A program made the translations under genes and the position numbers. A stretch of DNA of 64,000 nucleotides, from positions 659,136 to 723,135 of the forward strand of contig OY759724.1 in assembly GCA_963662715.1 (NCBI GenBank), read 5' to 3'. Below, piece by piece: positions 16,498 through 40,580 of this stretch. Numbering within the stretch: position 1 is the first letter of the stretch; every line of letters starts with the position of its first letter. The DNA comes from Candidatus Omnitrophota bacterium (GTDB taxonomy: Bacteria > Omnitrophota > Gorgyraeia > Zapsychrales > JANLHA01). The notes under the pieces were generated by a model that saw only the letters and a list, made by a program, of their open reading frames with translations, was not told the origin of the DNA and ran no database searches.

Positions 16498-16510
16498 AAT
16501 GTAAACCTCG

Positions 16511-20451: not shown

Positions 20452-20476
20452 AACGGCATACGCCTCCCTCAATATT

Positions 20477-21697: not shown

Positions 21698-23139
21698 TAC
21701 GGCGCCACGCTTTCCTTGTGAGATAATTGACATACAATCTTAAACTCGACATATTCCTCTTTAAACCTTTTCCTTTCCGTGGCATATTCTAAAGCGACCT
21801 TTTGAAATATTGCGGAATCCACCAGATTATTATGAAACTGGTTCACGGAACTTCTCGACTCTCCAAAACCGAGCAGAATAATCGTCCCCTGATGATCCAG
21901 CTGCAGCGATCGGAGAGAAATGGGTTCGGGGACCTGAAGAAAAAGTCTTTTAATAATTTCAACGAGGATCGTGCGGTCCTGAATTTTATCTTTCAAGAAC
22001 TCGATTGATTGAATCGTCTCTTCCGCCTTCCTCACGTCAGGCTGTATGGCCTTGATTTCTGCTTTCATTGCAGCTAATTGTCGGCCTTTCTGATAATTAT
22101 CAAGATTGAAAGCCACCCACAACAAAATGCACGCGCTTGTCAGGACAGCCCAGAACTTAAACAATTCTTTCCTTTTCACCTTTGAAGACTTGCTCTGGAT
22201 AATCTCCGCGGGAATAAGATTCATGCCCTCGAAGACCGGCAGGCCGAGACACCCGAGGCTTGCTGTAAAGGATAAATCTTCCTGATCCGTAAATTGCGGC
22301 TGACGGTCTTTCTTCTGCCGCATAGATATCCCGCGGGGAGAAATCACTTCCACCCCGGGGATTCCTGATGTTTCCAGCTGCCGTTGCAAAGAAACGACGG
22401 GCCGGTCAGAAAGGATATAAAAACGGGATAAAGCACTCCCCATGCGTTCTCTCGCGTACGTTTCGACAGTCATCTGAATCTGTTGCAGATAATCCCCCCC
22501 GCCGCCTTTCAGGATATCCTGATGACCGAAAGGCAGGTAACGGGAAAAAAGCAACCGGTCCCCTTGCACGATACAAAGTTCCGAACAGGAACGGTCAATA
22601 TCAAGGATAATGACGGCATCATTTTTGTGTTGAACTCGCGCAAGGATATTGGCTCTGTACCAGGAAAGGATTCCTATGGATGTCAGGACGACATTTTGAC
22701 AGGAGAGGTGCGCAGACGAGAGCACGTTCAAATATCTTTCTACGATCTCCTTCTGGACAATCTGCACAAGGATTTTAGAGTAGCCTTGCGCATCCTGGCC
22801 GACAATGGCATGACAATAGACGATATCCTCCCGGGCAAAAGGGATCTGCTGATGTATTTGCAAATCGAGCATACGCTGAATCTCCGCTGGAGAATCTGAC
22901 GGCAGCGACATCAACTTTACCGTCACAAAACGCCGGGGGATCACGAGGATAAGCCGCCCGCCCTTGCTGTGCGTCCCGGCGCCTTCCTTAACAATGGCCG
23001 GCAGTTCTTCCGGCGTTGTTTCTGTTATATCCTTTACAAAAGACCGGAAAACTACCGGGAGACCGCGCTGTATTCTTGCCTGCAGGATCTTGACCTGACC
23101 GTCGGTAATTTCAAACGTGCTTCTGTATTTGTCTTTCAT
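21697..23139 (-). CDS. gspL: GspL-like protein (PilM-type actin-like cytoplasmic domain fused to PilN-like TM/periplasmic domain)
   Basis: The N-terminal half has a PilM/FtsA-like fold (ILDIDRSCSELCIVQGDRLLFSRYLPFGHQDI). Then comes a TM segment (FWAVLTSACILLWVAF) and a PilN-like periplasmic part. The track start at 23172 is a TTG, so the start was set at the next ATG. Confidence 0.55.
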   Translation of the reverse strand: MKDKYRSTFEITDGQVKILQARIQRGLPVVFRSFVKDITETTPEELPAIVKEGAGTHSKGGRLILVIPRRFVTVKLMSLPSDSPAEIQRMLDLQIHQQIPFAREDIVYCHAIVGQDAQGYSKILVQIVQKEIVERYLNVLSSAHLSCQNVVLTSIGILSWYRANILARVQHKNDAVIILDIDRSCSELCIVQGDRLLFSRYLPFGHQDILKGGGGDYLQQIQMTVETYARERMGSALSRFYILSDRPVVSLQRQLETSGIPGVEVISPRGISMRQKKDRQPQFTDQEDLSFTASLGCLGLPVFEGMNLIPAEIIQSKSSKVKRKELFKFWAVLTSACILLWVAFNLDNYQKGRQLAAMKAEIKAIQPDVRKAEETIQSIEFLKDKIQDRTILVEIIKRLFLQVPEPISLRSLQLDHQGTIILLGFGESRSSVNQFHNNLVDSAIFQKVALEYATERKRFKEEYVEFKIVCQLSHKESVAP

Positions 23140-23156
23140 GATGTCTCTTTCAGTCC

Positions 23157-24251
23157 TCAGCTTCTTTTCCAATAGACAATGGAAAAATTATCCCGGAAAA
23201 CAACGGCCTCTATATTAGAATGAACGGCCGATGAACCATATCCCCCATCAACGTAAATACGGAAATAGCTGGAAATCTTTGTGCGGCTTTGCAGCATTTT
23301 CAGGGCAATAATTCTCTCTTCGCTGTTTAAAGCCAACTGGCCGACATCAATAATTTTGTCGTCAGCCGTCCCTAACTGCCCGTCGTCCCCTTTTCGGTAG
23401 TCGCATATTTTTTCTACAACACCGTCCGCGTCCTCCAGCTCCGTGTTCGTCTGGCTTCCCGTCAAGGACCTGGCCAGAGCCGTGAGAACCGGGCGCGAGG
23501 CGGTATCCATATTCACCTGAAACCTGCCGGCCGGGGGATAAACGGTCACATAATCTTTAATTTTTTTAAAAATATCCTCGGTCATGCCTTTGACCAAACG
23601 AAGTTCATCGACACTTTCAAAGGCGTAATTCTTACAGTGTCGTGGCGGGCTCTGATTGCTGTAAAAATCCTCTTCCGCGCCGTAAGGGGCGTTGAACGTC
23701 GTTTCATCCCCATCAACCCAATCGACAACAGAAGCCGCAACGATATCCGCGGCCTCCTCTTCAAAACCAAAATATATCACAAGATATTTTAAAATCTGGT
23801 AATTTTGTGAAGTCAGCAGATTAACGTTTATCCGGCTTTCCTCATCTTCAAATCCGAAGAAAACCTGCCTCTCCTCATCCTTCATTTTCATAAATTTAAC
23901 GTCAAAAAATCCGTCTCCCAACGGGACATTGCGGAAAAGCTCCTCCGGCTGCTGTTTGTCCTCCAGAACAATACCGCACTGATAAAGAGTATCAAACGTC
24001 CGCGTCTCAGAATTCAAGCTGTCTTTTTGAAGCTGGGCCATCGCATACATCAATCCGGCCAGGGCCGCGTGTTTCGTCCTAAACTTTTCCCTCTGATGCT
24101 TTGTTAAAGCCAATTCCACACTGGCCTGCCGGCTTATCCCCATGATTAAGACAGAAAGAATGGCTACGATCCAAAGCACGACAATAAGCATGACCCCGGA
24201 CCGGTCCTTCAGCCGGACCGGTTTTTTCTTTGTTAAAATATCTGTCATCAT
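23157..24251 (-). CDS. gspK: Minor pseudopilin GspK
   Basis: The N-terminal hydrophobic helix GVMLIVVLWIVAILSVL is the typical GspK N-terminus, followed by a large periplasmic domain. The track start is a TTG, so the start was set at the ATG with a GGAG RBS (MMTDIL...). Confidence 0.55.
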   Translation of the reverse strand: MMTDILTKKKPVRLKDRSGVMLIVVLWIVAILSVLIMGISRQASVELALTKHQREKFRTKHAALAGLMYAMAQLQKDSLNSETRTFDTLYQCGIVLEDKQQPEELFRNVPLGDGFFDVKFMKMKDEERQVFFGFEDEESRINVNLLTSQNYQILKYLVIYFGFEEEAADIVAASVVDWVDGDETTFNAPYGAEEDFYSNQSPPRHCKNYAFESVDELRLVKGMTEDIFKKIKDYVTVYPPAGRFQVNMDTASRPVLTALARSLTGSQTNTELEDADGVVEKICDYRKGDDGQLGTADDKIIDVGQLALNSEERIIALKMLQSRTKISSYFRIYVDGGYGSSAVHSNIEAVVFRDNFSIVYWKRS

Positions 24252-24268
24252 TGCGTTCTCCGGTGACA

Positions 24269-25072
24269 TCATTTCCAAAGCCCTAACGGGACAAGAATAT
24301 CTTTCTGCAACGCCAAAATATCTTCGGAATCCTGGGGATTCACGAGGACCATTTCCACTCTGATCAGAGACGGATGCTCAGTTTTTTTCCACGCCGTCTC
24401 CCAGCCGACATCATCCCCGGCAGCCCCTCTAGCGACATGCGCATAAGAGAACTTCAAGCTCCCCTCCTGAACATAACGGTTCAGGATCTCAAGCTCCTCT
24501 CCTAATTGCGATTCTTCCGAATCCCCCTCTTCGGAAGGAAAAAGTTTTTCCTCCCTGACAAGATATTGCAGGCGTTCTCCGTCGTCCGTCTGCGTTAACG
24601 TTATCGGGGTATTCCGGGAAGAAGAACTGCCGACAATAACTTTATGCACGACCCCGTAATCCGGATCCATTAAAAAATACCGCACTTCTTTCAGCCCGTC
24701 TTCCGTGGGGCGGAGCAATGTCAGCCGGGAAGCTTCTCCACAAAAAAAATCATCAGCATCCTCCCCCCCGTTTCCCTTTTGATGATAGGGCACCATACTT
24801 TCAACATCCAGGGCGAGCACATCCAAAGACCAAAAGGCCGACCGGTTGAGTTGTTCCAATCTCCGGGTCTTCTTTTGAATCTGTATGGCGCTTGCATAGG
24901 TGCCATACAGGCTTCCGGCAATAATGGAGACCATCCCTAAAGCCAACAGGATTTCCACTAAAGTAAAACCGAACGCATACGCGGGCCCGGAGAAGGCTCC
25001 GCCGGCCTTTCCCGGCCCTCTGTTTTTCCGGCAGGCGATTTCACATCCGTTTTTCATAACATCACGTGGCAT
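24269..25072 (-). CDS. gspJ: Minor pseudopilin GspJ (prepilin-type N-terminal methylation motif)
   Basis: Contains a GFTLVEILLALGMVSIIAG prepilin cleavage/methylation motif. Start set at the ATG (MPRDVMKNG), giving a leader of about 35 aa. The longer track start would give an implausible 59-aa leader. The start remains uncertain. Confidence 0.5.
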   Translation of the reverse strand: MPRDVMKNGCEIACRKNRGPGKAGGAFSGPAYAFGFTLVEILLALGMVSIIAGSLYGTYASAIQIQKKTRRLEQLNRSAFWSLDVLALDVESMVPYHQKGNGGEDADDFFCGEASRLTLLRPTEDGLKEVRYFLMDPDYGVVHKVIVGSSSSRNTPITLTQTDDGERLQYLVREEKLFPSEEGDSEESQLGEELEILNRYVQEGSLKFSYAHVARGAAGDDVGWETAWKKTEHPSLIRVEMVLVNPQDSEDILALQKDILVPLGLWK

Positions 25073-25493
25073 TAAAAACGAACCCCTGCATAGAGAAAGA
25101 ACGCTTTCTCCCGCCCAACATCCACGAGACTTCAAAAAGAAACTCATTCAGCCGTTCGCCGACGCTTTCATTGGCACTCTGAGCAGATTGCAGGGCATAA
25201 TGAAATTCCTCAAAAGGGTCCGGAAAGTCCCCCTCTTCCTGTTTATCCTGCTCGATACTCCCCCGGGCGAAAATACGCGACATATAATTATCCGAAATGT
25301 AAATGGCTTTCGAATAGTCACGGCTGTAAACCGTGGCCCTGTAACTCTGCGCCAAAGAATGGATAAGAAACGTCAGGCTCAGGGAAAAAACCGCGATGGC
25401 CAAAAGGACTTCCAGAAGCACAATCCCGGCGACAGAGGAAAAGACCTGAAAAGCTTTCCGTTGTTTTTTCCGAACAAAAAATTTCTTTAACAT
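25062..25493 (-). CDS. gspI: Minor pseudopilin GspI
   Basis: 143 aa. The N-terminus has GIVLLEVLLAIAVFSLSLTFL, a type-IV-pilin-like hydrophobic helix with Glu at +5. Confidence 0.5.
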   Translation of the reverse strand: MLKKFFVRKKQRKAFQVFSSVAGIVLLEVLLAIAVFSLSLTFLIHSLAQSYRATVYSRDYSKAIYISDNYMSRIFARGSIEQDKQEEGDFPDPFEEFHYALQSAQSANESVGERLNEFLFEVSWMLGGRKRSFSMQGFVFNAT

Positions 25494-25502
25494 AAACCCG
25501 CT

Positions 25503-26006
25503 CTAAGAATCCGAGGAAAAGGGCAATACTTCCACCAGCCCCCTGACCCCTTCCGTTGTTATTAAAAAACAATCCGTTTCCCGGCAGATATTGGCCTGAA
25601 ATTTTTCAATTTGTCCATCAGGATAAAAGACGACGGACTCTTTGCCTGCCGTTAACTGCATATCATCCGGGACCTCGTCCCGGCGTCCCCACGGACCTTC
25701 CAAAGCCTGAAACTGGCCGCCGTTCTCCTCCCAAGAATCGTCCGGGAAAGACTGTTCAATCCCGTACGTCTGAAACTGGGAGTCAAAAGAGAGCCGCATT
25801 TCAATCCCGCGGGTGATCGCGGCGCTTTGCGCATAACGCATCAAATAGGCCAGTTTATAAGCCGTATTCCGCAACTGGAGCCGCGCCAAGGACACGCTGA
25901 AATGAGGCAAGGAAACCGCTGCTATCACAGCCAACAGGACCACCACAATTAAAATTTCGATTAAAGTGAATCCTTCCTTCAACCTCCGCTCTGCCTCTTG
26001 TATCAT
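25503..26006 (-). CDS. gspH: Minor pseudopilin GspH
   Basis: MIQEAERRLKEGFTLIEILIVVVLLAVIAAVSLP carries the canonical G-FTLIE prepilin motif. The length of 167 aa fits GspH. Confidence 0.6.
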   Translation of the reverse strand: MIQEAERRLKEGFTLIEILIVVVLLAVIAAVSLPHFSVSLARLQLRNTAYKLAYLMRYAQSAAITRGIEMRLSFDSQFQTYGIEQSFPDDSWEENGGQFQALEGPWGRRDEVPDDMQLTAGKESVVFYPDGQIEKFQANICRETDCFLITTEGVRGLVEVLPFSSDS

Positions 26007-26008
26007 CT

Positions 26009-26536
26009 CTACTCCTGCTGCCAGTTGACGACATCGTCATCGCTTTCTATCCCGTCAGATCCATAAGAAAAAAGGTCATAACCTTCTGAATTATGAGCAC
26101 CCGGACACTTATAAACATACTCCTGCTTCCAGGGATCCAGCGGGACGACTTTCTTTTTGAGATACGGCCCGCCCCAATCCTGCGGGACCGGCGCTTCTGT
26201 CGGAGCTTCAATTAAAGCTTTTAATCCCTGTTCTGTTGTCGGGAAACGGCCGTTATCAAGCTCATACATATCCAAGGCCACGGATAAATTGGCCTCTATA
26301 TCAGCAACCGCTGCCGCTTGCTGAGCCTGCGATTTTTTCCCGGAAAAATTGGGAACAACCATAGCGGCCAAAACCCCGATAATAACAACTACGAGCAATA
26401 TTTCCACCAGCGTAAATCCCCTGCAGGTCCGGGCAAGGCCCGCGGCCCGGCGGCCCCTCTTATAAAGTTGAAATGCGATTGCCCCACCCCCCTGATCAAC
26501 TCTCTGATACAGCATGAAAATTATTTCTTTCCTCAT
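26009..26536 (-). CDS. gspG: Major pseudopilin GspG
   Basis: RGFTLVEILLVVVIIGVLAAMVVPNF ... ANLSVALDMYELDNGRFPTTEQGLKALIEAP ... DPWKQEYVYKCPG is the classic GspG sequence. Start set at the ATG with an AAGGGGGA RBS (MRKEIIF). The track ORF begins further upstream. Confidence 0.8.
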   Translation of the reverse strand: MRKEIIFMLYQRVDQGGGAIAFQLYKRGRRAAGLARTCRGFTLVEILLVVVIIGVLAAMVVPNFSGKKSQAQQAAAVADIEANLSVALDMYELDNGRFPTTEQGLKALIEAPTEAPVPQDWGGPYLKKKVVPLDPWKQEYVYKCPGAHNSEGYDLFSYGSDGIESDDDVVNWQQE

Positions 26537-26661
26537 AATGTGTCCCCCTTTTTGATATCTTAAAGATCCCGGGAGAACATCTCGTCCCGGGCATATTTCC
26601 TCTCCCGCGGCATTTACAGTCCGGGACAAAGAGCCTCGCGACAAAGCCGCTGTTATTTTTC

Positions 26662-27894
26662 TCAACGAATAATCAGATTCATCCTGAAAATAGGCAAAAG
26701 CATTCCCAAGACAATAAAACCGATAAACAAACCTAAAACAAGAATCAAGACAGGTTCAATAAGGCTCGTGATTCTTTTCATGGCTCTTTCAGACTGATGT
26801 TCGTAAAATACCGCCAGTTTTGTCAGTCCGACATGTAACTGGCCTGTTTCTTCCCCGATCGCGACCATATTGGCGGCGGCCTCCGGGAAAAGAGAACTGG
26901 CCTGCATCGACTGTGTTAAACTCGCCCCTTCTGTGACCTGCTGCGTCATCTTAGCGATATCCTGCTTCAGGAGTTCATTATCAATGACATGCTGAACCGT
27001 ATCAATGGCTGTGACGACCGTTACCCCGTTGCCCAGCAACGTGCCCAACGTCCTGGCAAACCGGCCTATTTCAACGTCCTTAATAAACTGTCCGATAACA
27101 GGCAATTTCAGTTTCAAACCGTCTATCTTTATCTTCCCTTCCGTCGTGGAATAAAGATGCTTTAAATATACGCCGGTCAAAACACCGGCCCCGATCAGCA
27201 ACCACCAAAAACGGGCCAGGAACCGGCTGACAGCCAGAAGCATCATCGTCACCAACGGCAATGATTCGTTCATATCAATAAAAATCGTCGAGATACGGGG
27301 GATCACCCATGTCAAGATCACAAAAATTGTCACTCCGCCGGCCAGCAGCAAAAAAGCCGGATAGAAAAGACTGGTTCTGACCTGGGCCCGCACATCATAA
27401 TCCTTCTCGACAAAATCAGCGACGCGGTCCAAAACAATATTAAGATTCCCGCCCACCTCTCCTGACCTGATGATATTGACATACAGCGGAGAAAAAAGGG
27501 CCGGGAATTGCGTCAAGGCCGTTGACAACGGCCCTCCCGCCTGAATGACGGAGATCATCTGCTGGGTCATCTGCTTGAAATGCTTATTTTTAATTTGTTT
27601 ATGAACAAGCTGCAGAGCCCGCAAAACAGGAACCCCGGCATTGACGAGGTCACTGAGCTGTCTGGTAAAAATCATAACGTCCTGAACCCGGACTTTCTGG
27701 GCCAACGGGGAAGGAGATATAACATTTTTGATCTTTTTCTGAATCTTTTTATCCGATGTCACTTTAACATCCAGGGGCGTATACCCCGTCTGAAGAAGAC
27801 GGCTGATAGCCATATCAACGTTATCGGCCTCAATCATCCCTTCGATAATTTGTGCGGGCCCCTGTTTAGCCTTATAATAGAAAACCTGTTTCAT
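26662..27894 (-). CDS. gspF: Type II secretion system inner-membrane platform protein GspF
   Basis: 410 aa. It shows two repeated GspF/PilC cytoplasmic-domain units separated by TM helices, and has the typical N-terminus (FYYKAKQGPAQIIEGMIEADNVDMAISRLLQTGYTPLDV). Confidence 0.8.
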   Translation of the reverse strand: MKQVFYYKAKQGPAQIIEGMIEADNVDMAISRLLQTGYTPLDVKVTSDKKIQKKIKNVISPSPLAQKVRVQDVMIFTRQLSDLVNAGVPVLRALQLVHKQIKNKHFKQMTQQMISVIQAGGPLSTALTQFPALFSPLYVNIIRSGEVGGNLNIVLDRVADFVEKDYDVRAQVRTSLFYPAFLLLAGGVTIFVILTWVIPRISTIFIDMNESLPLVTMMLLAVSRFLARFWWLLIGAGVLTGVYLKHLYSTTEGKIKIDGLKLKLPVIGQFIKDVEIGRFARTLGTLLGNGVTVVTAIDTVQHVIDNELLKQDIAKMTQQVTEGASLTQSMQASSLFPEAAANMVAIGEETGQLHVGLTKLAVFYEHQSERAMKRITSLIEPVLILVLGLFIGFIVLGMLLPIFRMNLIIR

Positions 27895-27912
27895 AAATAA
27901 CGCCGTTTCCCC

Positions 27913-29622
27913 TTAGAAATTCTTATCATCCTTCGTCACTCGGATAATTTCACTGGCCGTGGTTTGGCCTTTAACAACCTTTTCCCAGCCGTGCTGCAGC
28001 AGCGACACCATACCTTTATCCCTGGCTTTCCTTGCGATCTGGCTGGCTGTGGCCCGGGACAAAATCATTTCGCGAATCTCTTCATTCAGCGAAAGAAACT
28101 CGTAAATACCTTCCCGCCCGCGGTATCCCGTGAAATGACAAGACTCGCATCCGTCCGCCTCGTAAATCGTCTGCGACGTTTCTATGCGGACCGACGCTCC
28201 GAATATCTTGAGCATGTCTTCCGTAACAGAAGCCGGTTTCTTGCATAAAGGACATAACGTGCGGACGAGTCTTTGCGCGATAAAACACTCCACGGAACTG
28301 CAAATCAGATAAGGCTCCACGCCCATGTCCACAAGCCGGGTTATCCCGCTGGCCGCGTCATTCGTGTGCAAAGTCGAGAAGACCAAATGCCCGGTCAGGG
28401 CTATCTGTGTCGCTATTTCGGCGGTTTCCTTGTCCCGGACTTCTCCGACCATCATGATGTCCGGGTCATGGCGCAGCATGGCTCTCAACCCCTGGCTGAA
28501 CGTCAAGTGTATCGCGGGATTAATCTGTATCTGCGTGATGCCCTTCAACTGATATTCAATAGGGTCTTCTATCGTAATGATCTTTTTATCCGGATGGTTG
28601 ACATGCGCGAGGCAGGAATACAATGTCGTGGTTTTCCCGCTGCCGGTCGGCCCCGTAACAAAGATAATCCCGTGGGGTTTTTGGATCAACTGCTCAAGCA
28701 AAGCCTGCTCTCTGGGGGACAACCCCAGATCATTCATATCATAAAGCCGGTTTGAACTGAGGATACGGATCACGACACTTTCGCCGAACTGGGTCGGCAA
28801 AAATGACACACGGAGATCCAGGTTGATTTCCCCGACCTTAACTTTAAACCGCCCGTCTTGGGGCAGTCTTTTCTCCGCGATGTTCAGGTTGGACATGATT
28901 TTGATCCGTGAATTGATGGCTTCCTTAAAATGCCAGATATTCATAGGAACTTTTGTATCATAAAGAATTCCGTCGACCCTGTACCGGACTTTCAAATCTT
29001 TTTCGTAAGGCTCAATATGGATATCCGTCGCACGATCCTTATAGGCCTCCAGCAGGATCTGGTTGATGAACTTCCCGATTGAGGCATCGGAATCGATTTG
29101 TTCGATATCATCAACGCCCTTATCCTGTTCGTGCACCGCCGCAAACGTTCCCTTCATTTGCGCGATCGTCTCGGCTCCGACCCCGTAATACTGCCTGATG
29201 GCCTCCAGGATATCTTGCTCCCGGGCCAAAACGGTTTTTATTTTTGAAGCATGCACCAAATGAACCCCGTCTTGAATATAAATATTGTGGGGCTGGGCGG
29301 TCGCAATGGTCAAAAGATCCTCTTCCGAATCATAATCGACCGGAATGACTTTATAATGAGTCGCAATGGTGACCGGGATTCTCTGCAGAATACTTTTCTC
29401 AATGCGGAGGAGTTTTAAATCAAGAAAATCCACCCCCAGATATTCCGCCAACAGTCGATACATCCTCTTCTCTTCTTTGATAAAACCCAAATTGAACAAG
29501 ACAACCCACAACAGCTCGTGTGTCGCCTGCTGCTTCAGCAAGGCCTCATCCAACTGCTGTTGCTGGATAAAACCCTGTTCAACAAGCAGTGCCCCGAAAT
29601 CTGTTTCTGTGATGATTTTCAT
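27913..29622 (-). CDS. gspE: Type II secretion ATPase GspE
   Basis: An N-terminal N1E-like domain is followed by Walker A VTGPTGSGKTTTLY, Asp-box, Walker B IMMVGEVRD and a tetracysteine motif (CPLCKKP ... CESCHFTGYRGR). An AAGGGA RBS precedes the ATG. Confidence 0.85.
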   Translation of the reverse strand: MKIITETDFGALLVEQGFIQQQQLDEALLKQQATHELLWVVLFNLGFIKEEKRMYRLLAEYLGVDFLDLKLLRIEKSILQRIPVTIATHYKVIPVDYDSEEDLLTIATAQPHNIYIQDGVHLVHASKIKTVLAREQDILEAIRQYYGVGAETIAQMKGTFAAVHEQDKGVDDIEQIDSDASIGKFINQILLEAYKDRATDIHIEPYEKDLKVRYRVDGILYDTKVPMNIWHFKEAINSRIKIMSNLNIAEKRLPQDGRFKVKVGEINLDLRVSFLPTQFGESVVIRILSSNRLYDMNDLGLSPREQALLEQLIQKPHGIIFVTGPTGSGKTTTLYSCLAHVNHPDKKIITIEDPIEYQLKGITQIQINPAIHLTFSQGLRAMLRHDPDIMMVGEVRDKETAEIATQIALTGHLVFSTLHTNDAASGITRLVDMGVEPYLICSSVECFIAQRLVRTLCPLCKKPASVTEDMLKIFGASVRIETSQTIYEADGCESCHFTGYRGREGIYEFLSLNEEIREMILSRATASQIARKARDKGMVSLLQHGWEKVVKGQTTASEIIRVTKDDKNF

Positions 29623-29666: not shown

Positions 29667-31586
29667 TTAAAAATGCCGGTCCTCCTGAGCCAGAACAATC
29701 GCCAGGTTCTTTTGGGCGCTCTCATAACGAGGATCAATACGCAAAGCTTCCTGGAAATGATAGACAGCATGAACGGTCTCTCCCTGTTTCATATATATAG
29801 CACCGACGCTGTTATGCACCAAAGCGTTATCCGGATGATAAATAAGAATCTCGGAAAAATGCTTGCGGGCCTTTTCCAGAGCCCCTTGCTTCATATATAA
29901 ATCTCCCAAAACACTATGAATATATAAACTGTCCGGTTGACCGGCCAACGCCTGCAGATACATTTCCCGGGCTTGCTCGGGCTTGTTCTGAAGCACATAG
30001 AAGTTCCCCAAATTCTTTAATGTTTCCGGATCACGACTGTCCAGAGCGCGGGCTTTCAGCAAATATTTCTCCGACAGCTCATATTGTCCTTCTTCCATAA
30101 GAAGAACACCGTAATTGCTGTTGGCTTGCGCATACTCAGGATTCAACCGCAGGGCCTGCTCATAAAAAACTTTTGCCCTTTTTAAGTCTCTTTCTTCATA
30201 AAATATATTCCCAAGATTATTATAATTTCGAAAATTTTCCGATTGAAACAACGCGGCATCCAGAAAATGCCTTTTCGCCGGCTCTTTTTTCCCGTCTTTA
30301 AGATAGGCCAATCCCAGGTTATAATGCGCAACCGGATGACGGGGGGCATGCCGCAAAACAAATCCCCATAAAGAATAGCCGTTGTTCCAGACCCGGCTCT
30401 GCTGAAAGGTCCCCAGCGCCATCCCTCCGATGATGAATACCGCGGCGACATTCAAGGATATCCTCTGAATCCTGTGGCTGGCCGTTGCGGAAGCCAGCCT
30501 CTCATACAGAATCCCGCATAGGATACAGAAGCCTAAACAGGGCAAATACATAAACCTGTCCGCCACGGGATTGAGCCCGGAGGAAACGGGATCCGTACGC
30601 AACAGGAAAAAAATCGACACCAGGTAAAACAGGAAAGAAAAATGCAGCCATTTGTTACAGTTTTTAGTGAGTAAAAAAAGGACCAGCAAGGCACATGCCA
30701 GCAAAGATAAAAAGTACGGCACATGGGTCCAGGACACAGGGAGCGGGTAAAAATAAAGCGGGGAGAGATGAACCGGGAGAAAGAATTTGTAAACATAAAA
30801 AACAAACGACCACAGCCATAATAAAATATTTACCGAGACCGGGCTGCCGGGGCTCCCCCCCATATTCAGCCTGTAGGTTATCCACGCTACGGGAACAGCG
30901 TATAACACAAAAGGGATTTTTTCCTTCAAAACTTTCCCGCACAATCTCCTGCCGCGGAACCAATCGCAAACAAGAAGCGCAAGAGGCAGACTCACCGCCA
31001 TAGGCTTGGACAGCATGCCCAGGAATCCGAATAATATAGCAGCATAGTAGGGTCTTCTTTCTCCTGTCCGGATAAAATTCATATACTGCACCAGAGCCAG
31101 CATATAAAAGAACGCGTACAGCACATCTTTCCGGGCGCTCATCCAGGCAACAGGTTCGACGTGTATGGGATGAAGGCCAAAAATCAGGGCAGCTGCACCG
31201 GCAGCCCTGGCGGATGCCCCCAGCTGAAGGGCGAACTTATAGACGAGACAAACCACGCCTATATGAAGCAGCAGATTATCGAGATGATAGACAATCGGAT
31301 TCTCTTGAAAAAAAAGATGTTCCAGGGAGAAAGACAGGATCGTTAACGGGATATATATATCGCAAACTGTACTCTTGAAGATCCGGACAATATTGCCCAG
31401 GCTGAATTGACGGGCCATTTGATTCCATTCAAAATTATTCTGATCATCCCAGACAAAATGCCCCGTTAAAACCGGCCCATAAGCGGCCAGTATCAGCACA
31501 ATCCCTAAAAAAAGCCGTCCCCGGCCGGGAGATAAAAAAGAAATCTTTTTCATAGAAAGACGCATAAAATGAATCGCAATCTGCAT
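29667..31586 (-). CDS. TPR-repeat membrane protein with GT-C-like (PMT/TMTC-like) N-terminal polytopic domain
   Basis: The N-terminal roughly 400 aa contains about 10 TM helices. It has a DD-type motif (HFVWDDQNNF) in the first periplasmic loop, as in GT-C glycosyltransferases of the PMT/ArnT type. The C-terminal roughly 230 aa consists of TPR repeats (NLGNIFYEERDLKRAKVFYEQALRLNPEYAQA...). The start could be ATG 31586 or ATG 31553. Confidence 0.55.
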   Translation of the reverse strand: MQIAIHFMRLSMKKISFLSPGRGRLFLGIVLILAAYGPVLTGHFVWDDQNNFEWNQMARQFSLGNIVRIFKSTVCDIYIPLTILSFSLEHLFFQENPIVYHLDNLLLHIGVVCLVYKFALQLGASARAAGAAALIFGLHPIHVEPVAWMSARKDVLYAFFYMLALVQYMNFIRTGERRPYYAAILFGFLGMLSKPMAVSLPLALLVCDWFRGRRLCGKVLKEKIPFVLYAVPVAWITYRLNMGGSPGSPVSVNILLWLWSFVFYVYKFFLPVHLSPLYFYPLPVSWTHVPYFLSLLACALLVLFLLTKNCNKWLHFSFLFYLVSIFFLLRTDPVSSGLNPVADRFMYLPCLGFCILCGILYERLASATASHRIQRISLNVAAVFIIGGMALGTFQQSRVWNNGYSLWGFVLRHAPRHPVAHYNLGLAYLKDGKKEPAKRHFLDAALFQSENFRNYNNLGNIFYEERDLKRAKVFYEQALRLNPEYAQANSNYGVLLMEEGQYELSEKYLLKARALDSRDPETLKNLGNFYVLQNKPEQAREMYLQALAGQPDSLYIHSVLGDLYMKQGALEKARKHFSEILIYHPDNALVHNSVGAIYMKQGETVHAVYHFQEALRIDPRYESAQKNLAIVLAQEDRHF

Positions 31587-31631: not shown

Positions 31632-33203
31632 TTATTTCTCCTGAAGCTCCGGGATGAAAAAGATGATATACTCCGTACGGAGAATAAATCTGTTTTCACT
31701 GCGAAAGATAAAGCCAAAAAGGGGCAAATCGCCCAGGAGGGGAACTTTAGACGTTTTTTCAACTTCTTTTTCTCTCAACAATCCCCCCAGAATAATCACG
31801 TCCGCCCCGTCGATCGGCAGTTCCGCAGAAACCTGCGGCTGAAACGGCTTGTCTGAAGAAGCCTCCAGCGTCGGACGATTATCGGCCAGCCAGTGAAGAT
31901 GCGGACTCAGCCGGACAAGATATTTCTTTTCCGGAAGGGCATTGACCAGAATTTTCATCTTCATGGCAAACCCTTCATCATCCTTAAAATCCCCGGGGAC
32001 ATTCATCGTGTCCCAGCCCCATTCCTTCTCACTATTTAACTGGGAGACCCCGGAAAAATCGTTCAAATCAATAAGCTGGCCCGCGGCATCTAAGGCGTCT
32101 TTTAAGACAGGAAAATCTTCCTTCGTAATTGTGCCCAGGCTCAACCGGTTCTCCTCAGGTGAGCCGTTCTGTTGATCCCCTAAAATATCAAAATTTTTAT
32201 AATCGGAAACAATGGCGTCCCAGTCAATGCCCCCCTGATGTTCCTCATTCAGTTGAATTCTCGAAACCTGGATGCGCCAACGGACTTTAATAAGTTTATC
32301 CAGGTCCTGAATCATTTGCTCAATCTCCGATATTTTCTGCGCCGTATCCGTCACGGTTACGGAATTCGTGTCCCCGTCAAGAACAAGCTGCCCCAGATCT
32401 TCGGTGAGTGTCTTGGAGATCTTCTCCACGACAATGTCCGCCTTAACAAACTGGAATGAAAACACCTTTGTGACCAGGGGCGGGGTATCCCAGGACCGCA
32501 GCAAAGATTGCATTTGCTTCAAGGGTTCTTCGCTGTCCATAAGAATAAGCTGCTGGTTCTTTTCATCAGCGAAAAAATGTCCTTTAAGGCTCTTCAGCTG
32601 CACCAGATTCTTTTTCATGTCATCCACGGAACGGTATTCCAGTTTAATAACTTCAACCTGTGTTTCCGGGGCAAAAGGACGCCCCATCTTCTGTTCATAC
32701 TCTTCCCGGGAAACAACACGAATGACCTGCTCCTCCTGCATATAAGCCAAGTCACTCATCAACGTCACGACGGACAATAAATTCTCAAGGGAAACATCCT
32801 TTAAGCACAAAGTGATAAACCGAGTCGGCAGGACATCAGCTTCAATATTTAAATGGCTCTTTTCTGTCAAAACTTTTATGACATCCGACAAAGGGGTCCG
32901 GGCAAAATCCACTTCGGATATGACCCGATCCCACTCGTCTTCCATTCTCTTATCTTCTTCCGGGGCAGCGGCAGGACTGACAGCGACAGCCCGCTGGACA
33001 TCCAACTCTATGGTAAAAAATTCCTTCGTCTTACCCGGGGAAAGCCCCTCCTGTTCCGGAACAGTTTCGTTCATCGGGACCGGCAACGAATCGTCGGAAG
33101 AAACAATTTCATTTTTAAGCGATGGAATCCGGGCCCCGGATTCTTCCGCATACACTTCAGCCCCTAAAAAAAGGCAAACAAGAAAAAGACAAAAATATCG
33201 CAT
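31632..33203 (-). CDS. Divergent secretin-family outer-membrane protein (second secretin)
   Basis: A signal peptide (MRYFCLFLVCLFLGAEVYA) and N-domain-like segments are followed by a C-terminus alignable to the gspD secretin domain (GGIDWDAIVSDY ... KYLVRLSPHLHWLADNRPTLEAS ... DVIILGGLLREKEVEKTSKVPLLGDLPLFGFIFRS ... EYIIFFIPEL). Compare gspD: GVDWEAIVRDY ... IKLYVTPTIHRD ... TIVIGGLIKD ... VPVLGDVPLVGMAFRNRD ... EIVIFLTPKL. Confidence 0.55.
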   Translation of the reverse strand: MRYFCLFLVCLFLGAEVYAEESGARIPSLKNEIVSSDDSLPVPMNETVPEQEGLSPGKTKEFFTIELDVQRAVAVSPAAAPEEDKRMEDEWDRVISEVDFARTPLSDVIKVLTEKSHLNIEADVLPTRFITLCLKDVSLENLLSVVTLMSDLAYMQEEQVIRVVSREEYEQKMGRPFAPETQVEVIKLEYRSVDDMKKNLVQLKSLKGHFFADEKNQQLILMDSEEPLKQMQSLLRSWDTPPLVTKVFSFQFVKADIVVEKISKTLTEDLGQLVLDGDTNSVTVTDTAQKISEIEQMIQDLDKLIKVRWRIQVSRIQLNEEHQGGIDWDAIVSDYKNFDILGDQQNGSPEENRLSLGTITKEDFPVLKDALDAAGQLIDLNDFSGVSQLNSEKEWGWDTMNVPGDFKDDEGFAMKMKILVNALPEKKYLVRLSPHLHWLADNRPTLEASSDKPFQPQVSAELPIDGADVIILGGLLREKEVEKTSKVPLLGDLPLFGFIFRSENRFILRTEYIIFFIPELQEK

Positions 33204-33334: not shown

Positions 33335-34672
33335 TTATTCTTTCAAATCAGATTTAAACTTATCCAGTTGTTGCCGCGAATAAACATTGTCAGGGTATTC
33401 CCTCACCAAACCTTCTTCAATATCAATGGCTTCCTGTATCCGCCCCATTTTGTAAAGGACCTCGGCTTTGGTATCTAAAAAAGCAAAATTATCCGGATCC
33501 AAAGTCAGGGCCTTATTTATCAATTCAAGCGCACGGGGCAAATGGATGTCATTTTCAGCATAAATCCAGGCCAAATCATTATAAGGCCCCGGAGATGAAG
33601 GTTGATGGTTAATGCTTTTAAGCAACAGCGTTTCTTTACCCTTGAAGTCAAGCTCGTGATACTGTTGTTGAAATTCAAAATAAGTCGGATTACTCATCGC
33701 AAAAATGACAATAGAAATAAAGGTCATGCCGCCGTTGTAAACATAATGCATAATAATCCCCGGGATAGCCGATCCCGTACGCATTCTCTGTAAAGTCAGG
33801 ATCAAACCCAGGACGGCCACCACCAATATGGCCAGCCAATCCCCCCAATATTGTTCAACGTGCAGCAAGGCAAAGAGGCATGGAATGATAATGATCGCCG
33901 CCTTTTTTCCTTTGATCTTCTCCAGGATATAATAAAAATACCCCCGGAAAAGAATCTCCTCCAGGAAAGGCGCCATAAAAACCGCAACAATCATCAACGC
34001 CGGGAAGACCCACATGGCCGTTGTTGATTCAGCAAGCTGGCTGAGCGGAGTGGCCGGCTGGGTTTCCCGCGAATAAATAATCCAGCTGGAAATCCCCGCC
34101 ATGCAGGCACCGGCCAAAAACGGCACGACGGTCAATTTCCACCAAGAAAGATTATGCCGCTTAAGCCCGAGTATTTCCAGGAACGATATGGACGTATACT
34201 TATGCACGGAACGCCGGATAATCCATAAAAGAACAAGCGGGGAGGCGGCAGAAATAACCACAACTTCCCCCAGTTCGGATTGCAGCGGCGGGTAAAGGCT
34301 GTAAAGGATCTTAAGCCCCAACGTAAACAGGGACATCCATACAGACCATATCAGGATTGATCCCAAAAGGTCCACGGACAGGGAAAGACGAAGCCCAAGG
34401 ACCTCCGGGTCCTTTCTTTCCCCGGGCAAATGTCTTGTAAAGCCATACCGTTTAACCAAATAAACCGGAAGGACAAAAAAGAAGCAATACGTTGAAAGCT
34501 GTGCCCACTGCTGAGAAAAAACGAATGCGATCAGAAGTAAGAATCCGTACACGGCCACAGGCCAGGTCAGGGTCTGAAAATATTTTTTATACAGGGCAGG
34601 ATCTTGTCTCCTGATAACGAAAGAATCAAGATAAAGGAACCCAAAAACAATTAATAATAAAACCGGAGACAT
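33335..34672 (-). CDS. CPBP-family intramembrane glutamic endopeptidase (CAAX protease/Abi) fused to C-terminal TPR domain
   Basis: A polytopic N-terminus carries the CPBP motifs EEILFRGY (motif 1), LFALLHVEQY (motif 2) and HYVYNGG (motif 3). The C-terminal roughly 110 aa are TPR-like (YNDLAWIYAENDIHLPRALELINKALTLDPDNFAFLDTKAEVLYKMGRIQEAIDI). A strong AAGGAAG RBS is present. Confidence 0.65.
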   Translation of the reverse strand: MSPVLLLIVFGFLYLDSFVIRRQDPALYKKYFQTLTWPVAVYGFLLLIAFVFSQQWAQLSTYCFFFVLPVYLVKRYGFTRHLPGERKDPEVLGLRLSLSVDLLGSILIWSVWMSLFTLGLKILYSLYPPLQSELGEVVVISAASPLVLLWIIRRSVHKYTSISFLEILGLKRHNLSWWKLTVVPFLAGACMAGISSWIIYSRETQPATPLSQLAESTTAMWVFPALMIVAVFMAPFLEEILFRGYFYYILEKIKGKKAAIIIIPCLFALLHVEQYWGDWLAILVVAVLGLILTLQRMRTGSAIPGIIMHYVYNGGMTFISIVIFAMSNPTYFEFQQQYHELDFKGKETLLLKSINHQPSSPGPYNDLAWIYAENDIHLPRALELINKALTLDPDNFAFLDTKAEVLYKMGRIQEAIDIEEGLVREYPDNVYSRQQLDKFKSDLKE

Positions 34673-36646: not shown

Positions 36647-36877
36647 TCGTTTGCTCCTACATTAAAATGATTTTTATACGGCCTGACTTTACCCTGAGTC
36701 AGGCGCCATCAGATAGTTTACACTAATCGTCCCGATAGTGATAACCATTTTCTTTGTTTGCAAAAATATCCTTATAAACGCTTTTCTTAATTTTCACGCT
36801 CAGCCCCTGAAATAATATGAACAAATCATCCCTTCAGGTGATGCGAGACAATCAGCTTTCCAAACACATGACAAACA

Positions 36878-38431
36878 TTATAAATCTATCGTATACCCGT
36901 CATTATCATTAAGATAGGGGTAACCGTGACGGTAATTTTTATGATCCAGTTCGATCAGGATTCCTTTTAATTCCTGAGGGGCAGCGTTTTCCTGCAAAGC
37001 GACCCCACGCCCCTTGTATCGCCAGATGCGATATATTCTTTCTTTTAAAAAAGGCCCAGAATAGATCGGTTTATTATACGGGTCAAAGCGGCATTCCTGC
37101 CCAAGGAATAAAAGTTTTATCCGGGAAGGATGATAAGGATAATAATGGTACTTCTTATATATATTATTAGTTTCAATGAAAACAAAACAAAGATTCATTT
37201 GAATAAAAAACAGGCAGGCAAAAACAACAGCTTTATTCAACCGGGATAAGAATAATAAACGTGCCAAGAATATGGCAAAAAATACAGACCAATATGTTCC
37301 GTACCAATAAGGCCCCCAGATAACATTGGAAACAGTCATAAACAAATTATGAAACAATATCAGCATTGACAATCCGAAAGCCCATAGGATAAGTTCGATA
37401 TGGATCGTGCTGTCCCGGGGAATCCGTCTTTGCTGATAAAATGCGCGGACGACAAGGACCGACAGCGTTATGACACATAAACAGTTCACCGCCCCTAACA
37501 ACTTAAACCATACCAGACTGTTGGGAGAGATTTTGACGATCCCCAGCGTATCAAAAATTAATAATGCTGCGTTTCGGGACAAATTTTGAATAAACACGCT
37601 GAAGGTTCTTTCATGAAATAATCCTTCGATCTTGCCGTATCCTTGAATCGGATCAAAACAGCCGGCGGAGTTTGTCATCATCGGCAGAAACTTTGTATAC
37701 AACAACAAAGCCAGCACTGGGATTAACAGGAACCCCGTGAGCCTCACCCTATCCGTCAGTAAATACGGAAAAAATAACACAACAGCAGGGTAAATGAGAA
37801 GTGCTGTTTCGTCCCAGAAGAAACTTATGAGCATCAACATGAGGAACCCGGCGAAACGCCAAGAGGGGAACGAACGGCTTTTGTCACAATGGGGTGGTGA
37901 TGATTTGCATAGCGTTGAGGCATAAAACAGGCACAGGATGATGGAAAAATTCGTCATGGCTTTCGCTGGACGAAAAAGCATGACAACAAGCGACAAGAAG
38001 CCGGGGGACAGCAAATAAAAAGCGACAGCAGCTAAAGCGGTATTGGCGTCTATTTTTATGTTTCGAAGAAACCGGAACATAAAAATGGGGGATAATATTA
38101 AAGAAAATATCCATGTCAAGGATAAGCTGGGGTGCGGAGCGACGGCTTGCCATAACCAAACACGAAACTTGGTATCGATAATTTCAAAATAGGAAGATAG
38201 CGGCCTGGATATCCGGGGTGCATATTCGAAAACATTCCAGTTTAAGCCAAGCTGAAAATCCTGCAGGCTGAGATCTTTTCCTTGGTCCAATATCTGGCTT
38301 TTTATCCAGAATTGCTCAGGATGCATCCAGACATGATCATAAGACAACAAAAGGAACGCAATAAATACGTAGGCAAAAGAAAGCAAAAGCGCGGCAGGGT
38401 AATTTCGAATAAATTGAAGGAACGCTCGCAT
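36878..38431 (-). CDS. Hypothetical polytopic membrane protein (possible GT-C-like glycosyltransferase)
   Basis: 517 aa, with at least 10 hydrophobic segments. It is rich in aromatic residues. A long periplasmic-loop-like hydrophilic stretch lies near the C-terminus. No catalytic motif was identified. Confidence 0.4.
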   Translation of the reverse strand: MRAFLQFIRNYPAALLLSFAYVFIAFLLLSYDHVWMHPEQFWIKSQILDQGKDLSLQDFQLGLNWNVFEYAPRISRPLSSYFEIIDTKFRVWLWQAVAPHPSLSLTWIFSLILSPIFMFRFLRNIKIDANTALAAVAFYLLSPGFLSLVVMLFRPAKAMTNFSIILCLFYASTLCKSSPPHCDKSRSFPSWRFAGFLMLMLISFFWDETALLIYPAVVLFFPYLLTDRVRLTGFLLIPVLALLLYTKFLPMMTNSAGCFDPIQGYGKIEGLFHERTFSVFIQNLSRNAALLIFDTLGIVKISPNSLVWFKLLGAVNCLCVITLSVLVVRAFYQQRRIPRDSTIHIELILWAFGLSMLILFHNLFMTVSNVIWGPYWYGTYWSVFFAIFLARLLFLSRLNKAVVFACLFFIQMNLCFVFIETNNIYKKYHYYPYHPSRIKLLFLGQECRFDPYNKPIYSGPFLKERIYRIWRYKGRGVALQENAAPQELKGILIELDHKNYRHGYPYLNDNDGYTIDL

Positions 38432-38685
38432 GTATGTTGGCTTAAATTTTATAAATTAAATTTTTTATTTAATAGTCTAGCAGTAAACGTCTGAAATGTC
38501 CGGGATAAAAAAGGCGCAAAAGAACGGGGCAAAAATGCCGGGCTCATCAAAAAAAGGCAAACATATGGACAAAACTTCCTGATAAGAGTATCTTAAACAT
38601 AAGAAAATTCAATCGCACTGTTCATGTTTCTCAAAGGAGTTTCCCGGGAAACGACCTCCATAAACCTAAAGGGTTGTTTATAGTT

Positions 38686-40410
38686 ATGGCGACATTATCA
38701 AAACCCTTCGGAAACAGAAAAACATATTTTCTTTCTTTACTGATTATCATCACGGTTAATTTGATTGTCTTCTCTCCCTCGTTTCATATCCGGGCCAAAG
38801 GCGACCATATCGCCTATCTCATCGAAACCGCCGACATAGAAGACCTGACAGAGTTAATTAATTACAGTTATTCCTACTGCCGGACACGGGTTATTTATCC
38901 CGGAGACCGCATCTTATTCCGCCCGCTGTTTTATGTTCTTCTTTCCCTTGAGAAATGGCTTTGGGGTTACAATTTCATTTATTGGCAAATAACGGGCTTC
39001 TTCTTTCATATCATCATCCTGTCTTTACTCCTTAGAGCATTAAATACGCTTCAGAGCCACAACATTTCATTTCTTTTTGTCCTGTTCTTTTCTGTCTTAT
39101 ACATCGGACACGATCTGGTGACATGGCACCACATGCACGGCTACTTAGTGTTCATAATTTTGCTTCTCTTCTCCTTTATTCATTTTATTCATTACGTTCA
39201 AAATGAGCAGAAAAATCACAAGAATTTATGGAGCATGATCGGATGCCTCTTGCCCGCTGTGTTTATCAATGAGTTCGGCGCTGTCGCTGCCATAATATTC
39301 TGGGGCACTTTACTGATTCACCGCAAGTTTGTTCTGTCTCCCCGGAGGAAAGGGAATGACGCGGACAAAAGATGCTTCCGGAAATTCAACAATTTGACTT
39401 TCCTCTTTCTGCCCGTGATAATCTATTTTTATTTAAGCCTGATCGACTTCAACCTGAGATTTTCAACAGGCTGTCTTTCCCAGGGATCAAACTTTTTTGC
39501 TTCTCTGGCTTCTCCCGGAAAACTCCTTATGCATTTCGTCTCCCTTCTCCTGGCCAGCTTTAGCCTTCCGGTTATTCCTGCGGCGTTCATGATATTTGTC
39601 GATGAAAAAAATTATGCCCAATTCATGAACCTTTCCCTCATCATGCAATATGACCCGCACACAAAAACTTTCTTCATATTAAATATCCTTCTTCTGCTGA
39701 CCGCCGTGACGACAGGGGGCATGCTTATTTACAACCTGAGCAAAGACAAAATCCGGCTGAGCCCTAAGCTACGCGAGGCCTGTCACAATAAACAAATTCA
39801 AGATCTTCTTATCATGACATCCCTATGCAGTTTAATGCTTACGGCTTATATTTTTGTCCTGGTATTTTTCCGGACATCAGGAAAAACCCTCTCGTATGTT
39901 TCTAATAATCTATACCATTTTTATATTCTGACCATATTCCCGGCCATTATTAGCTACTGTATATTTTTTGTCATCCATAATATCTTTATTAAGCACCAAA
40001 AAATGCTGACAAGCCTGACTGTCGTTGTGCTAGTGCTCGGAATTTCTTTAAATGCTTCAAAAGTATACATGTTAAATAACATTGCTCAAAAAAAATACGC
40101 TCCCTGGACTCAGTTTATCAGAGAATTAGGACAATTTGTCAATGAACATAAAGAAGAACCCGGGTTCTCTTTTTTCTTTGTAAGCCGAGACACCCCGAAT
40201 TATTTCCGCGTAACGGCCGAAAACAACCTGGAAAAGAAAGAGATACTCGGGTACACTTCCGATTTTCTTTTCCGGAGATATATCAACACCCTTTCTCCGA
40301 AATATTATCTTATTTTCAGACAGCACGAAGGCATTGTCCCTTTCCAATCCCAAAAAGAGGCAGAAAAATACCTGCAGCAAGAACAGACAAACCGCTTAAC
40401 AGCTGAATAA
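38686..40410 (+). CDS. Hypothetical polytopic membrane protein
   Basis: About 574 aa counted from the ATG (MATLSKPF). The track start at 38674 is a TTG. It has at least 12 hydrophobic segments and a soluble C-terminal domain. It lies divergent from 36878..38431 across an AT-rich promoter region. Confidence 0.4.
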   Translation: MATLSKPFGNRKTYFLSLLIIITVNLIVFSPSFHIRAKGDHIAYLIETADIEDLTELINYSYSYCRTRVIYPGDRILFRPLFYVLLSLEKWLWGYNFIYWQITGFFFHIIILSLLLRALNTLQSHNISFLFVLFFSVLYIGHDLVTWHHMHGYLVFIILLLFSFIHFIHYVQNEQKNHKNLWSMIGCLLPAVFINEFGAVAAIIFWGTLLIHRKFVLSPRRKGNDADKRCFRKFNNLTFLFLPVIIYFYLSLIDFNLRFSTGCLSQGSNFFASLASPGKLLMHFVSLLLASFSLPVIPAAFMIFVDEKNYAQFMNLSLIMQYDPHTKTFFILNILLLLTAVTTGGMLIYNLSKDKIRLSPKLREACHNKQIQDLLIMTSLCSLMLTAYIFVLVFFRTSGKTLSYVSNNLYHFYILTIFPAIISYCIFFVIHNIFIKHQKMLTSLTVVVLVLGISLNASKVYMLNNIAQKKYAPWTQFIRELGQFVNEHKEEPGFSFFFVSRDTPNYFRVTAENNLEKKEILGYTSDFLFRRYINTLSPKYYLIFRQHEGIVPFQSQKEAEKYLQQEQTNRLTAE

Positions 40411-40580
40411 CCAATGATCGTCACCCGTCTTCGGGACTCCACAGGCCGGATGGCAGAATGTGCCTGTCCACATCAGGGCGTGCATTTAATTTTTCTTTGG
40501 ATCTTAACAGAGAATTTAAAGGAAGGCGGACGCCGATAAAGCAACCATCCGTGCTGGATCAGGATTTCAAAAAAAGCCCA

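Follow-up and report, generated by a model that had tools for sequence, protein, structure and literature searches.

Location of a second secretin gene

[quoted passage not shown] Filamentous phages, type IV pili and the type II and type III secretion pathways all use a secretin as their exit gate. Canonical members assemble as 12–16-mer outer-membrane rings that resist sodium dodecyl sulphate, and a tight outer membrane is considered to require their inner gate. The gene considered here, the head secretin (nt 31632–33203), is a single intact open reading frame (ORF) of 523 residues on the minus strand with an ATG start; the other, the tail secretin (nt 18670–20514, minus strand), is of the canonical type. 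The head secretin is an intact secretin paralog with a reduced gate, and it belongs to a family of secretins reduced in the same way.

Both genes lie in a co-directional run on the minus strand. It comprises, in order, a gene for a CPBP (Rce1-like) intramembrane protease with C-terminal tetratricopeptide repeats (TPR) (nt 33335–34672, assigned by Pfam) directly upstream of the head secretin, the head secretin itself, a 639-residue polytopic membrane protein with a C-terminal TPR match (nt 29667–31586), GspE with an MshEN domain (nt 27913–29622), GspF (nt 26662–27894) and GspG (nt 26009–26665, true start uncertain). Past GspG the run continues with four pseudopilins (H/I/J/K, nt 23157–26006), a PilM-PilN fusion (nt 21697–23172), PilO/GspM (nt 21167–21733), a GspC-like protein (nt 20477–21082) and the 614-residue canonical secretin. 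The T2SS/T4P-like core (nt 20477–29622) was identified with NCBIfam and Pfam, and the tail secretin is GspD/PilQ-like according to PF00263, TIGR02515 and the XcpQ and PilQ structures. On its 3' side, also on the minus strand, is a block of genes for Amidase_3, MurI, QueD/C/E/F, RNase PH and Ham1 (nt 12879–18526), defined by the window ORFs and by synteny with relatives. No terminator-like sites were found in the intergenic gaps from the CPBP gene through the head secretin and the TPR gene to GspE. The first-pass annotation had put the additional secretin upstream of gspE; it is upstream but not directly so, as the 639-residue gene (nt 29667–31586) lies between them.

The head secretin is predicted to have a complete secretin fold

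Pfam, BLASTP against the tail secretin, AlphaFold2 (AF2) and Foldseek agree that nt 31632–33203 encodes a real second secretin, an intact paralog of the canonical GspD, as that annotation had proposed in describing a second, diverged secretin here. The sequence blocks it quoted are present in the two translations (GIDWDAIV / GVDWEAIV; IILGGLL..VPLLGDLPLFG / IVIGGLIKD..VPVLGDVPLVG; IFFIPEL / IFLTPKL). By BLASTP the head and tail secretins share 32% identity over residues 105–376 (E 2e-43) and 41% over residues 470–520 (E 4e-12), with residues ~377–469 unaligned. Pfam Secretin_N matches the head protein in two stretches (58.8 bits, 6.1e-16). PF00263 matches it with 45.4 bits (gathering cutoff 27.5, E 8.5e-12), which is above the gathering score and covers only the end of the profile, positions 103–167 of 169; the tail secretin matches positions 1–168 (1.4e-49). 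Sequence searches of the PDB with the head secretin returned a significant match only at residues ~456–520.

The AF2 monomer models of the head and tail secretins (predicted local distance difference test scores, pLDDT, of 80.8 and 79.9) agree in how their elements follow one another. The N0, N1 and N3 domains lead into a long first barrel strand, lip hairpin and helix; next come the GATE1 hairpin and GATE2, then another barrel strand, the amphipathic helical loop (AHL) and the last strand. The three N-domains of the head protein (N0, residues 94–165; N1, 182–238; N3, 243–301; nt 32301–32924, minus strand, from AF2, Pfam and BLASTP) align domain for domain with those of the tail GspD. Its secretin domain, residues 306–520 (nt 31644–32288, minus strand), consists in the model of strands at residues 306–318, 333–360, 375–398, 412–438, 460–486 and 501–520 and of helices at 364–374 and 497–500. 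The elements of a putative double-walled barrel all stand in canonical order in the head monomer model, with the inner hairpins shortened. In Foldseek this model aligned along its whole length with InvG, PulD, GspD and PilQ at a probability of 1.0. Two observations had been named that would overturn the secretin assignment, failure of the secretin HMM to match and a periplasmic protein composed of N-domains alone. PF00263 does match, and AF2 and Foldseek both give the full secretin fold.

The N-terminus carries a predicted Sec signal peptide without a lipobox (residues ~1–19, MRYFCLFLVCLFLGAEVYA|EE, nt 33147–33203, minus strand, read from the sequence), and orthologs share hydrophobic N-termini ending in A/G-x-A|E. 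The ~70 residues that follow in the model (14–84) have low AF2 confidence and are likely a disordered linker. The AHL motif, VPLLGDLPLFGFIFR (residues 487–501, nt 31701–31745, minus strand), is of the VPxLGDxPxxGxLF type and is kept in the head secretin, with P488, D492, P494 and F500 in columns that are invariant or nearly so among 56 secretins. No secretin motif is more conserved than the AHL, which plays a central part in membrane insertion (PMC6155069). The protein ends three residues past the last barrel strand and thus lacks an S-domain. A pilotin role, which had been suggested among other possibilities, is unlikely because the barrel and AHL are kept.

The gate is shortened and its constraint relaxed

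The first-pass annotation considered the intervening barrel-forming region to be highly diverged. The divergence concentrates specifically in the inner-barrel gate, GATE1/GATE2 (residues 375–465, nt 31809–32081, minus strand), which is degenerate according to alignments, AF2, mapping to XcpQ and a canonical-gate hidden Markov model (HMM); the outer barrel, lip and AHL are kept. In the AF2 models the GATE1 arms measure 24 and 12 residues in the head secretin and 34 and 21 in the tail secretin, the strand after GATE1 has 12 residues instead of 18, and tail strand 528–536 corresponds to a low-confidence loop (residues 439–459) in the head. Alignments place the kinks in GATE1 15 residues apart in the head secretin, against 30 in the tail, and neither kink glycine is kept (tail G461 is D398 in the head, tail G491 is A413). 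The gate was mapped by aligning the tail secretin through this region to the XcpQ and PilQ structures, and by this structure-anchored alignment tail G461/head D398 occupies the position of PulD G458 and GspD G453. The canonical-gate HMM gave −3.2 bits for the head secretin and 165 for the tail GspD. The head secretin therefore has no full-length GATE1 with kink glycines: it has lost half of the GATE1 hairpin, and it is without an S-domain. In canonical secretins, GATE1 forms the physical barrier across a lumen of ~75 Å and is buttressed by GATE2 (PMC6155069).

Among orthologs of the head secretin the gate is the least conserved folded part, with 40–71% identity and a dN/dS ratio (omega) of 0.06–0.36, compared with 0.03–0.26 for the folded regions outside it. 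In the least saturated pair, omega was 0.21 for the gate, 0.09 for the N-domains and ~0 for the C-terminal part. Tail secretin orthologs present the reverse picture, the gate being their most conserved part (94–100% identity, omega ~0.02). Constraint on the head gate is relaxed roughly 10-fold, exactly where canonical secretins are most constrained. From these omega values the head gene is under purifying selection throughout, the ORFs are intact in all lineages sampled and the signal peptides are kept. A pseudogene was rejected on dN/dS, the intact ORFs and the signal peptides.

A family of gate-reduced secretins

A profile built from head-type sequences retrieved 799 cluster representatives (clustering at 50% identity) with E ≤ 1e-30. 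Among 144 new top-ranked hits, 107 scored below 35 bits on the canonical-gate HMM (median 1.5), and another 36 were canonical (median 127 bits). The gate-reduced group has a median length of 500 residues. The distance from the GxDW motif to the AHL is 161 residues in the head secretin, 165 (median) in the gate-reduced group and 179 in canonical secretins, and the corresponding numbers of residues from the start of the AHL to the C-terminus are 38, 41 and 73, so that a C-terminal extension is absent.

In neighbour-joining trees, all 24 sampled gate-reduced sequences fell into one clade that excluded the canonical ones, with a bootstrap value of 99% (93% after removal of the gate columns), and the nearest relatives of this clade were canonical Omnitrophota secretins. 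Named members come from Candidatus Omnitrophota/Omnitrophica, the sole exception being one sequence labelled Lysobacterales. By clade, by gate-HMM and length profile and by syntenic position, the head secretin belongs to this family. It is a member of an old, large, apparently phylum-specific monophyletic clade that split from the canonical T2SS secretin of Omnitrophota. Monophyly was obtained here from neighbour-joining trees of fast-evolving sequences, in which long-branch attraction is possible, and this weighs against our interpretation. Recombination between head and tail types as the origin of the orphan copies was rejected, as sliding-window comparisons of P0009, P0010 and P0011 with the consensus sequences revealed no switch point.

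Several members are much shorter than the head secretin. Three consist of N3 and the secretin domain (330 residues at L088, 363 at L101 and 322 at L173; L-numbers denote loci of relatives). Two mini-secretins, of 251 residues (L102:505-1260) and 227 residues (L103:9869-10552), have a signal peptide and the secretin domain alone, with most of the gate deleted, and have an RsmB/F methyltransferase gene on one side and Amidase_3 on the other; that of L103 matches PF00263 at 7e-14. Members with only N3 or without N-domains could therefore dock to no platform in the inner membrane.

Gene neighbourhoods of the family

Nine independent contexts (L002, L087, L099, L102, L103, L169/170, L173, L174 and the P0150 contig) have a gate-reduced secretin followed directly by Amidase_3, MurI, QueD/C/E/F, RNase PH and Ham1, with no T2SS genes between. 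The amidase-MurI block adjoining these orphan secretins consists of the same genes that lie 3' of the tail secretin in the window. T2SS genes directly 3' of a gate-reduced secretin were seen only in the window family and at L171 (L171:11564-18609). The T2SS block of L171 appears to be in decay: GspF is broken up into ORFs of 140 and 292 residues and GspG into ORFs of 50 and 89 residues, an IS110-family transposase sits among the pseudopilin genes, and the adjoining gate-reduced secretin is intact.

On the other side, a CPBP gene precedes the secretin, either directly or with up to two small genes in between. This arrangement was seen in at least nine architectures, including those of the window family, L002, L087, L088, L101, L169, L171, L172 and the P0150 contig. 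The CPBP stop and secretin start abut or overlap at L003 (9999/10001), L088 (4807-4810) and L089 (1221/1223). No CPBP gene is present upstream of the secretin at L102, L103, L099 or L174. The genomic position of the clade goes with the amidase-MurI block, and in many cases with the CPBP protease, rather than with T2SS genes.

A small MerR-family gene was also observed directly 5' of orphan gate-reduced secretins at L002:9575-9892, L169:9684-9941 and L174:9796-10029, and two database proteins (P0272 and P0274) have been called as MerR-secretin fusions. The MerR-family gene may be a dedicated regulator.

Relationship to known secretins

The head secretin falls short of the cutoffs of the GspD, PilQ and MshL families. 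It scored 93.8 bits with TIGR02517 (GspD; cutoff 351.35), 97.8 bits with TIGR02515 (PilQ; cutoff 284.35) and 64.4 bits with TIGR02519 (MshL; cutoff 250.2); the tail secretin reached 280.8 bits with the PilQ model. Pfam detected neither an AMIN domain nor Secretin_N_2 (PF07655) in the head secretin, and it has three N-domains rather than the N0-N1-N2-N3 arrangement with S-domain or pilotin site that characterises GspD. Features that it has in common with GspD, PulD, XcpQ and PilQ are the signal peptide, N0 together with ring-building N-domains, and the outer barrel with its lip and AHL. It differs from them in its half-length GATE1 without kink glycines, its diverged GATE2, the number of N-domains and the missing S-domain; the gate, which is under maximal constraint in canonical secretins, is relaxed in the head protein. 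Orthology to MshL was rejected on best hits and trees, the nearest sequences being tail secretins of Omnitrophota.

Leaky or partly open gate mutants are known, among them the pIV GATE1/GATE2 mutants, PulD G458S and Vibrio cholerae GspD G453A. They are altered in the same element as the head secretin, including the PulD G458 equivalent (D398 in the head secretin), but are laboratory point mutants, whereas the shortening described here is natural, fixed across a family and known from sequence. Additional secretins also have precedents. XqhA of Pseudomonas aeruginosa is reportedly an orphan secretin paralog. Myxococcus xanthus has three secretin paralogs with distinct functions, including Mxan_RS15055/Om031 (PMC12475490). 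Like the head secretin, XqhA and Mxan_RS15055/Om031 are extra secretins outside or beyond a dedicated machine; unlike in the present case, gate truncation, N-domain loss and a phylum-wide syntenic family were not found reported for them. In the literature covered (Omnitrophota, paired, orphan and gate-lacking secretins, and the Acidithiobacillus caldus structure), no natural gate-reduced secretin family was found described, nor were two secretins in one T2SS block or secretin-domain-only secretins. Orphan or extra secretins and leaky gate point mutants are accordingly known already; of a natural gate-reduced secretin family we found no description.

Possible functions of the head secretin

The interpretation we favour, to which we give roughly an even chance of being correct, is that the head secretin forms an outer-membrane channel of its own, with a gate reduced to a vestige, and is not an obligatory part of the T2SS. 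It would be exported by the Sec pathway and inserted into the outer membrane by means of its AHL, and would there assemble a multimeric barrel on its own. Multimerisation is suggested by the retention of the outer barrel, lip and AHL. The lumen would be wider than that of a normal secretin or would be closed in some other way. The channel would work independently of the neighbouring T2SS, to which its proximity in the window would be positional: the T2SS block, from the TPR-membrane gene to GspD, would lie between the head secretin and its usual amidase-MurI neighbour. Since the family usually has no adjacent secretion machine, the head secretin is probably an independent channel and not a T2SS spare part.

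Several points weigh against this. We infer oligomerisation, pore state and independence from the T2SS, and pore width and oligomerisation derive from a monomer model based on an alignment that contains canonical secretins. Lineages with orphan copies, which were read at contig loci, may use a T2SS or T4P encoded elsewhere in trans, and L099 has T2SS genes 3 kb downstream of its gate-reduced secretin. In the window family and at L171 the secretin stands immediately upstream of T2SS genes, with no detectable terminator between, and the head protein still has N0, through which canonical secretins contact GspC/PilP. Finally, a pore that is tens of angstroms across and has no gate should be expensive to maintain, and some other plug may therefore exist.

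Some of the same observations suit a second outlet or partner of the same T2SS, the main alternative though a good deal less probable. N0-N1-N3 of the head secretin would then engage the GspC/PilMNO platform of the adjacent machine. The protein would either form an alternative, homo-oligomeric port through which other cargo or another fibre passes, or be mixed or stacked with the canonical GspD. The first-pass annotation had asked whether the pair recurs in related genomes, and it does: L007, L008 and L009, located through GspF (65–68% identical), have a head secretin of 524–538 residues and a tail secretin of 591–607 residues in the window order. The head part (CPBP, head secretin, TPR-membrane gene and GspE onward) is kept at L001, L003, L004–L006 and L089, and the order of the T2SS core is common to the window, L001, L003, L004 and L007–L009. 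The gaps from CPBP to GspE are without terminator-like sites, and co-transcription is plausible; N0 is retained, and N0–N3 are 32% identical to those of the tail GspD; and at L171 a family member directly precedes GspE.

The gene order also recalls clusters for mannose-sensitive haemagglutinin (MSHA) pili, in which the MshL secretin is followed by MshM/N, MshE and MshG; the window has a secretin, a TPR protein, an MshEN-domain ATPase and a GspF-like platform protein in that order, and Desulfobacterota loci found here have an MshI/J/K-L-M-E-G-like order. The resemblance is positional only, however, as the head secretin is closest to Omnitrophota tail secretins and not to the MshL type, and the TPR protein of the window is fused to a large polytopic membrane domain.

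Against a shared T2SS, most family members adjoin no T2SS gene, and some are without N0 or without any N-domain. T2SSs of the same type run on a single canonical secretin at L018, where the order is FabF-GspE...GspC-secretin, and at L096 and L098, where the canonical secretin immediately precedes GspE (the upstream regions of the tail-secretin loci L091, L094 and L095 fall outside the head-copy comparison). Mixed rings appear less likely with interface residues down to 32–41% identity. Two secretins serving one apparatus, as first proposed, is an idea only partly borne out: the second secretin and the conserved pair are real, but the clade is mostly amidase-adjacent, which does not speak for shared service. 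For this genome a hetero-oligomeric channel, a cap or a shared machine is less probable, with nothing found here in its favour.

A stronger version of the self-standing channel would make the whole family gate-less, constitutively wide pores, in effect secretins turned into giant porins. We consider this unlikely. Such a porin would let ultra-small, host-dependent Omnitrophota exchange or take up macromolecules with no inner-membrane motor, and the secretin-domain-only versions (227–251 residues) would be its minimal form.

Somewhat less likely again is an export partnership with the upstream protease, by analogy with myxosortase, since the clients of that CPBP protease arrive at the surface via the T2SS (PMC11980579). 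In this case the CPBP/TPR protease would process C-terminally anchored proteins, for which the secretin would be the route to the surface. The frequency of the CPBP gene upstream of the secretin (at least nine architectures, several with abutting or overlapping codons) is consistent with this, as are weak NCBIfam matches to Mrt-type sorting proteases. The window protein matches the Pfam Rce1-like family at 1.7e-19 in addition to its TPR, but its NCBIfam scores are far under the cutoffs (38.5 against 130 for MrtS, 21.4 against 100 for Mrt_core). The gene is missing upstream of the secretin in four contexts (L102, L103, L099 and L174), no candidate tag family was identified, and the one sorting tag seen in the window is PEP-CTERM, a signal for exosortase and not for CPBP proteases. 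The order RsmB-CPBP-secretin-amidase may be mere conserved gene order.

A structural, non-conduit role is improbable. A secretin-derived ring would here serve as a tether between the outer membrane and the cell wall or inner membrane, or as a scaffold for the neighbouring amidase, and its lumen would be irrelevant. Where the T2SS is absent, the secretin invariably adjoins Amidase_3-MurI and an AsmA/DUF748-like lipid-transport gene, and selection is relaxed precisely at the gate; both agree with such a role. The gate is nevertheless still under purifying selection, and the mini forms keep the barrel and AHL and shed the periplasmic domains, the opposite of what a tether needs. A decaying, functionless duplicate would explain the lost canonical gate motifs and the variation of gate length among relatives, but is hardly credible for a gene with intact ORFs and retained signal peptides in every sampled lineage, omega of 0.03–0.36 across folded regions, more than 100 clusters at 50% identity, and persistence where neighbouring T2SS genes are disrupted (L171).

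The self-standing channel thus remains our preferred reading. A large natural family shortens the gate yet keeps the membrane-insertion parts under purifying selection, and some lineages have shed all periplasmic domains of the gate-reduced secretin. Should the pore state be confirmed, the family would reveal how much simplification a secretin scaffold tolerates. It would then supply structural or nanopore studies with large pores that insert by themselves and are pared down to ~200 residues, and would point to an unrecognised envelope component of Omnitrophota, a phylum for which we know of no cultured model. For annotation, the lesson is that a secretin need not be a component of the T2SS-like machine whose operon it heads.

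Other features of the window

The 639-residue protein between the head secretin and GspE (nt 29667–31586, minus strand) has a polytopic membrane domain of ~400 residues followed by TPR repeats like those of the PilF/PilW/Tgl pilotins. Pfam and NCBIfam give TPR only, similarity to PilW/PilF/Tgl being below the cutoffs; the N-terminal 425 residues have no Pfam match even at E ≤ 10, and no PDB sequence match was found outside the TPR region. Conservation of this gene is limited to the window family, and L171 lacks it. Its first loop contains the motif GHFVWDDQ, which we take to resemble the catalytic loop of GT-C/TMTC-type glycosyltransferases, and the protein may glycosylate pseudopilins or cargo.

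The GspE-like ATPase (nt 27913–29622, minus strand) has the NCBIfam cyclic di-GMP motif NF053729 at residues 9–52 (40.8 bits, cutoff 38), which suggests that the T2SS-like machine could be under cyclic di-GMP control. In related T2SS blocks (L016:6421-7251, L018:9893-10729 and L091:8258-9088) an ExeA-like AAA_22 ATPase is encoded between PilO and the GspC-like protein. This gene is missing in the window lineage, as the corresponding gap (nt 21082–21167) is only 85 bp.

Upstream of the CPBP gene, nt ~36700–40500 have a G+C content of 0.41, compared with ~0.47 around, and carry two divergent ORFs without Pfam matches (nt 36878–38431, minus strand, 517 residues; nt 38674–40410, plus strand, 578 residues). 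The segment looks inserted because the flanking genes match the gene lists of L001, L003 and L004 and these two ORFs do not. At the far end, a Cys- and acid-rich ORF of more than 1325 residues without a convincing Pfam match (nt 59894–64000, minus strand) runs off the window; giant proteins are a noted trait of Omnitrophota. Next to it, nt 58789–59577 (plus strand) specify a secreted protein of 262 residues that ends in a textbook PEP-CTERM signal, VPEPATLSLLGFGLMGLAGFRKKRS, and so implies, as read from its sequence, a probable exosortase system in this organism.

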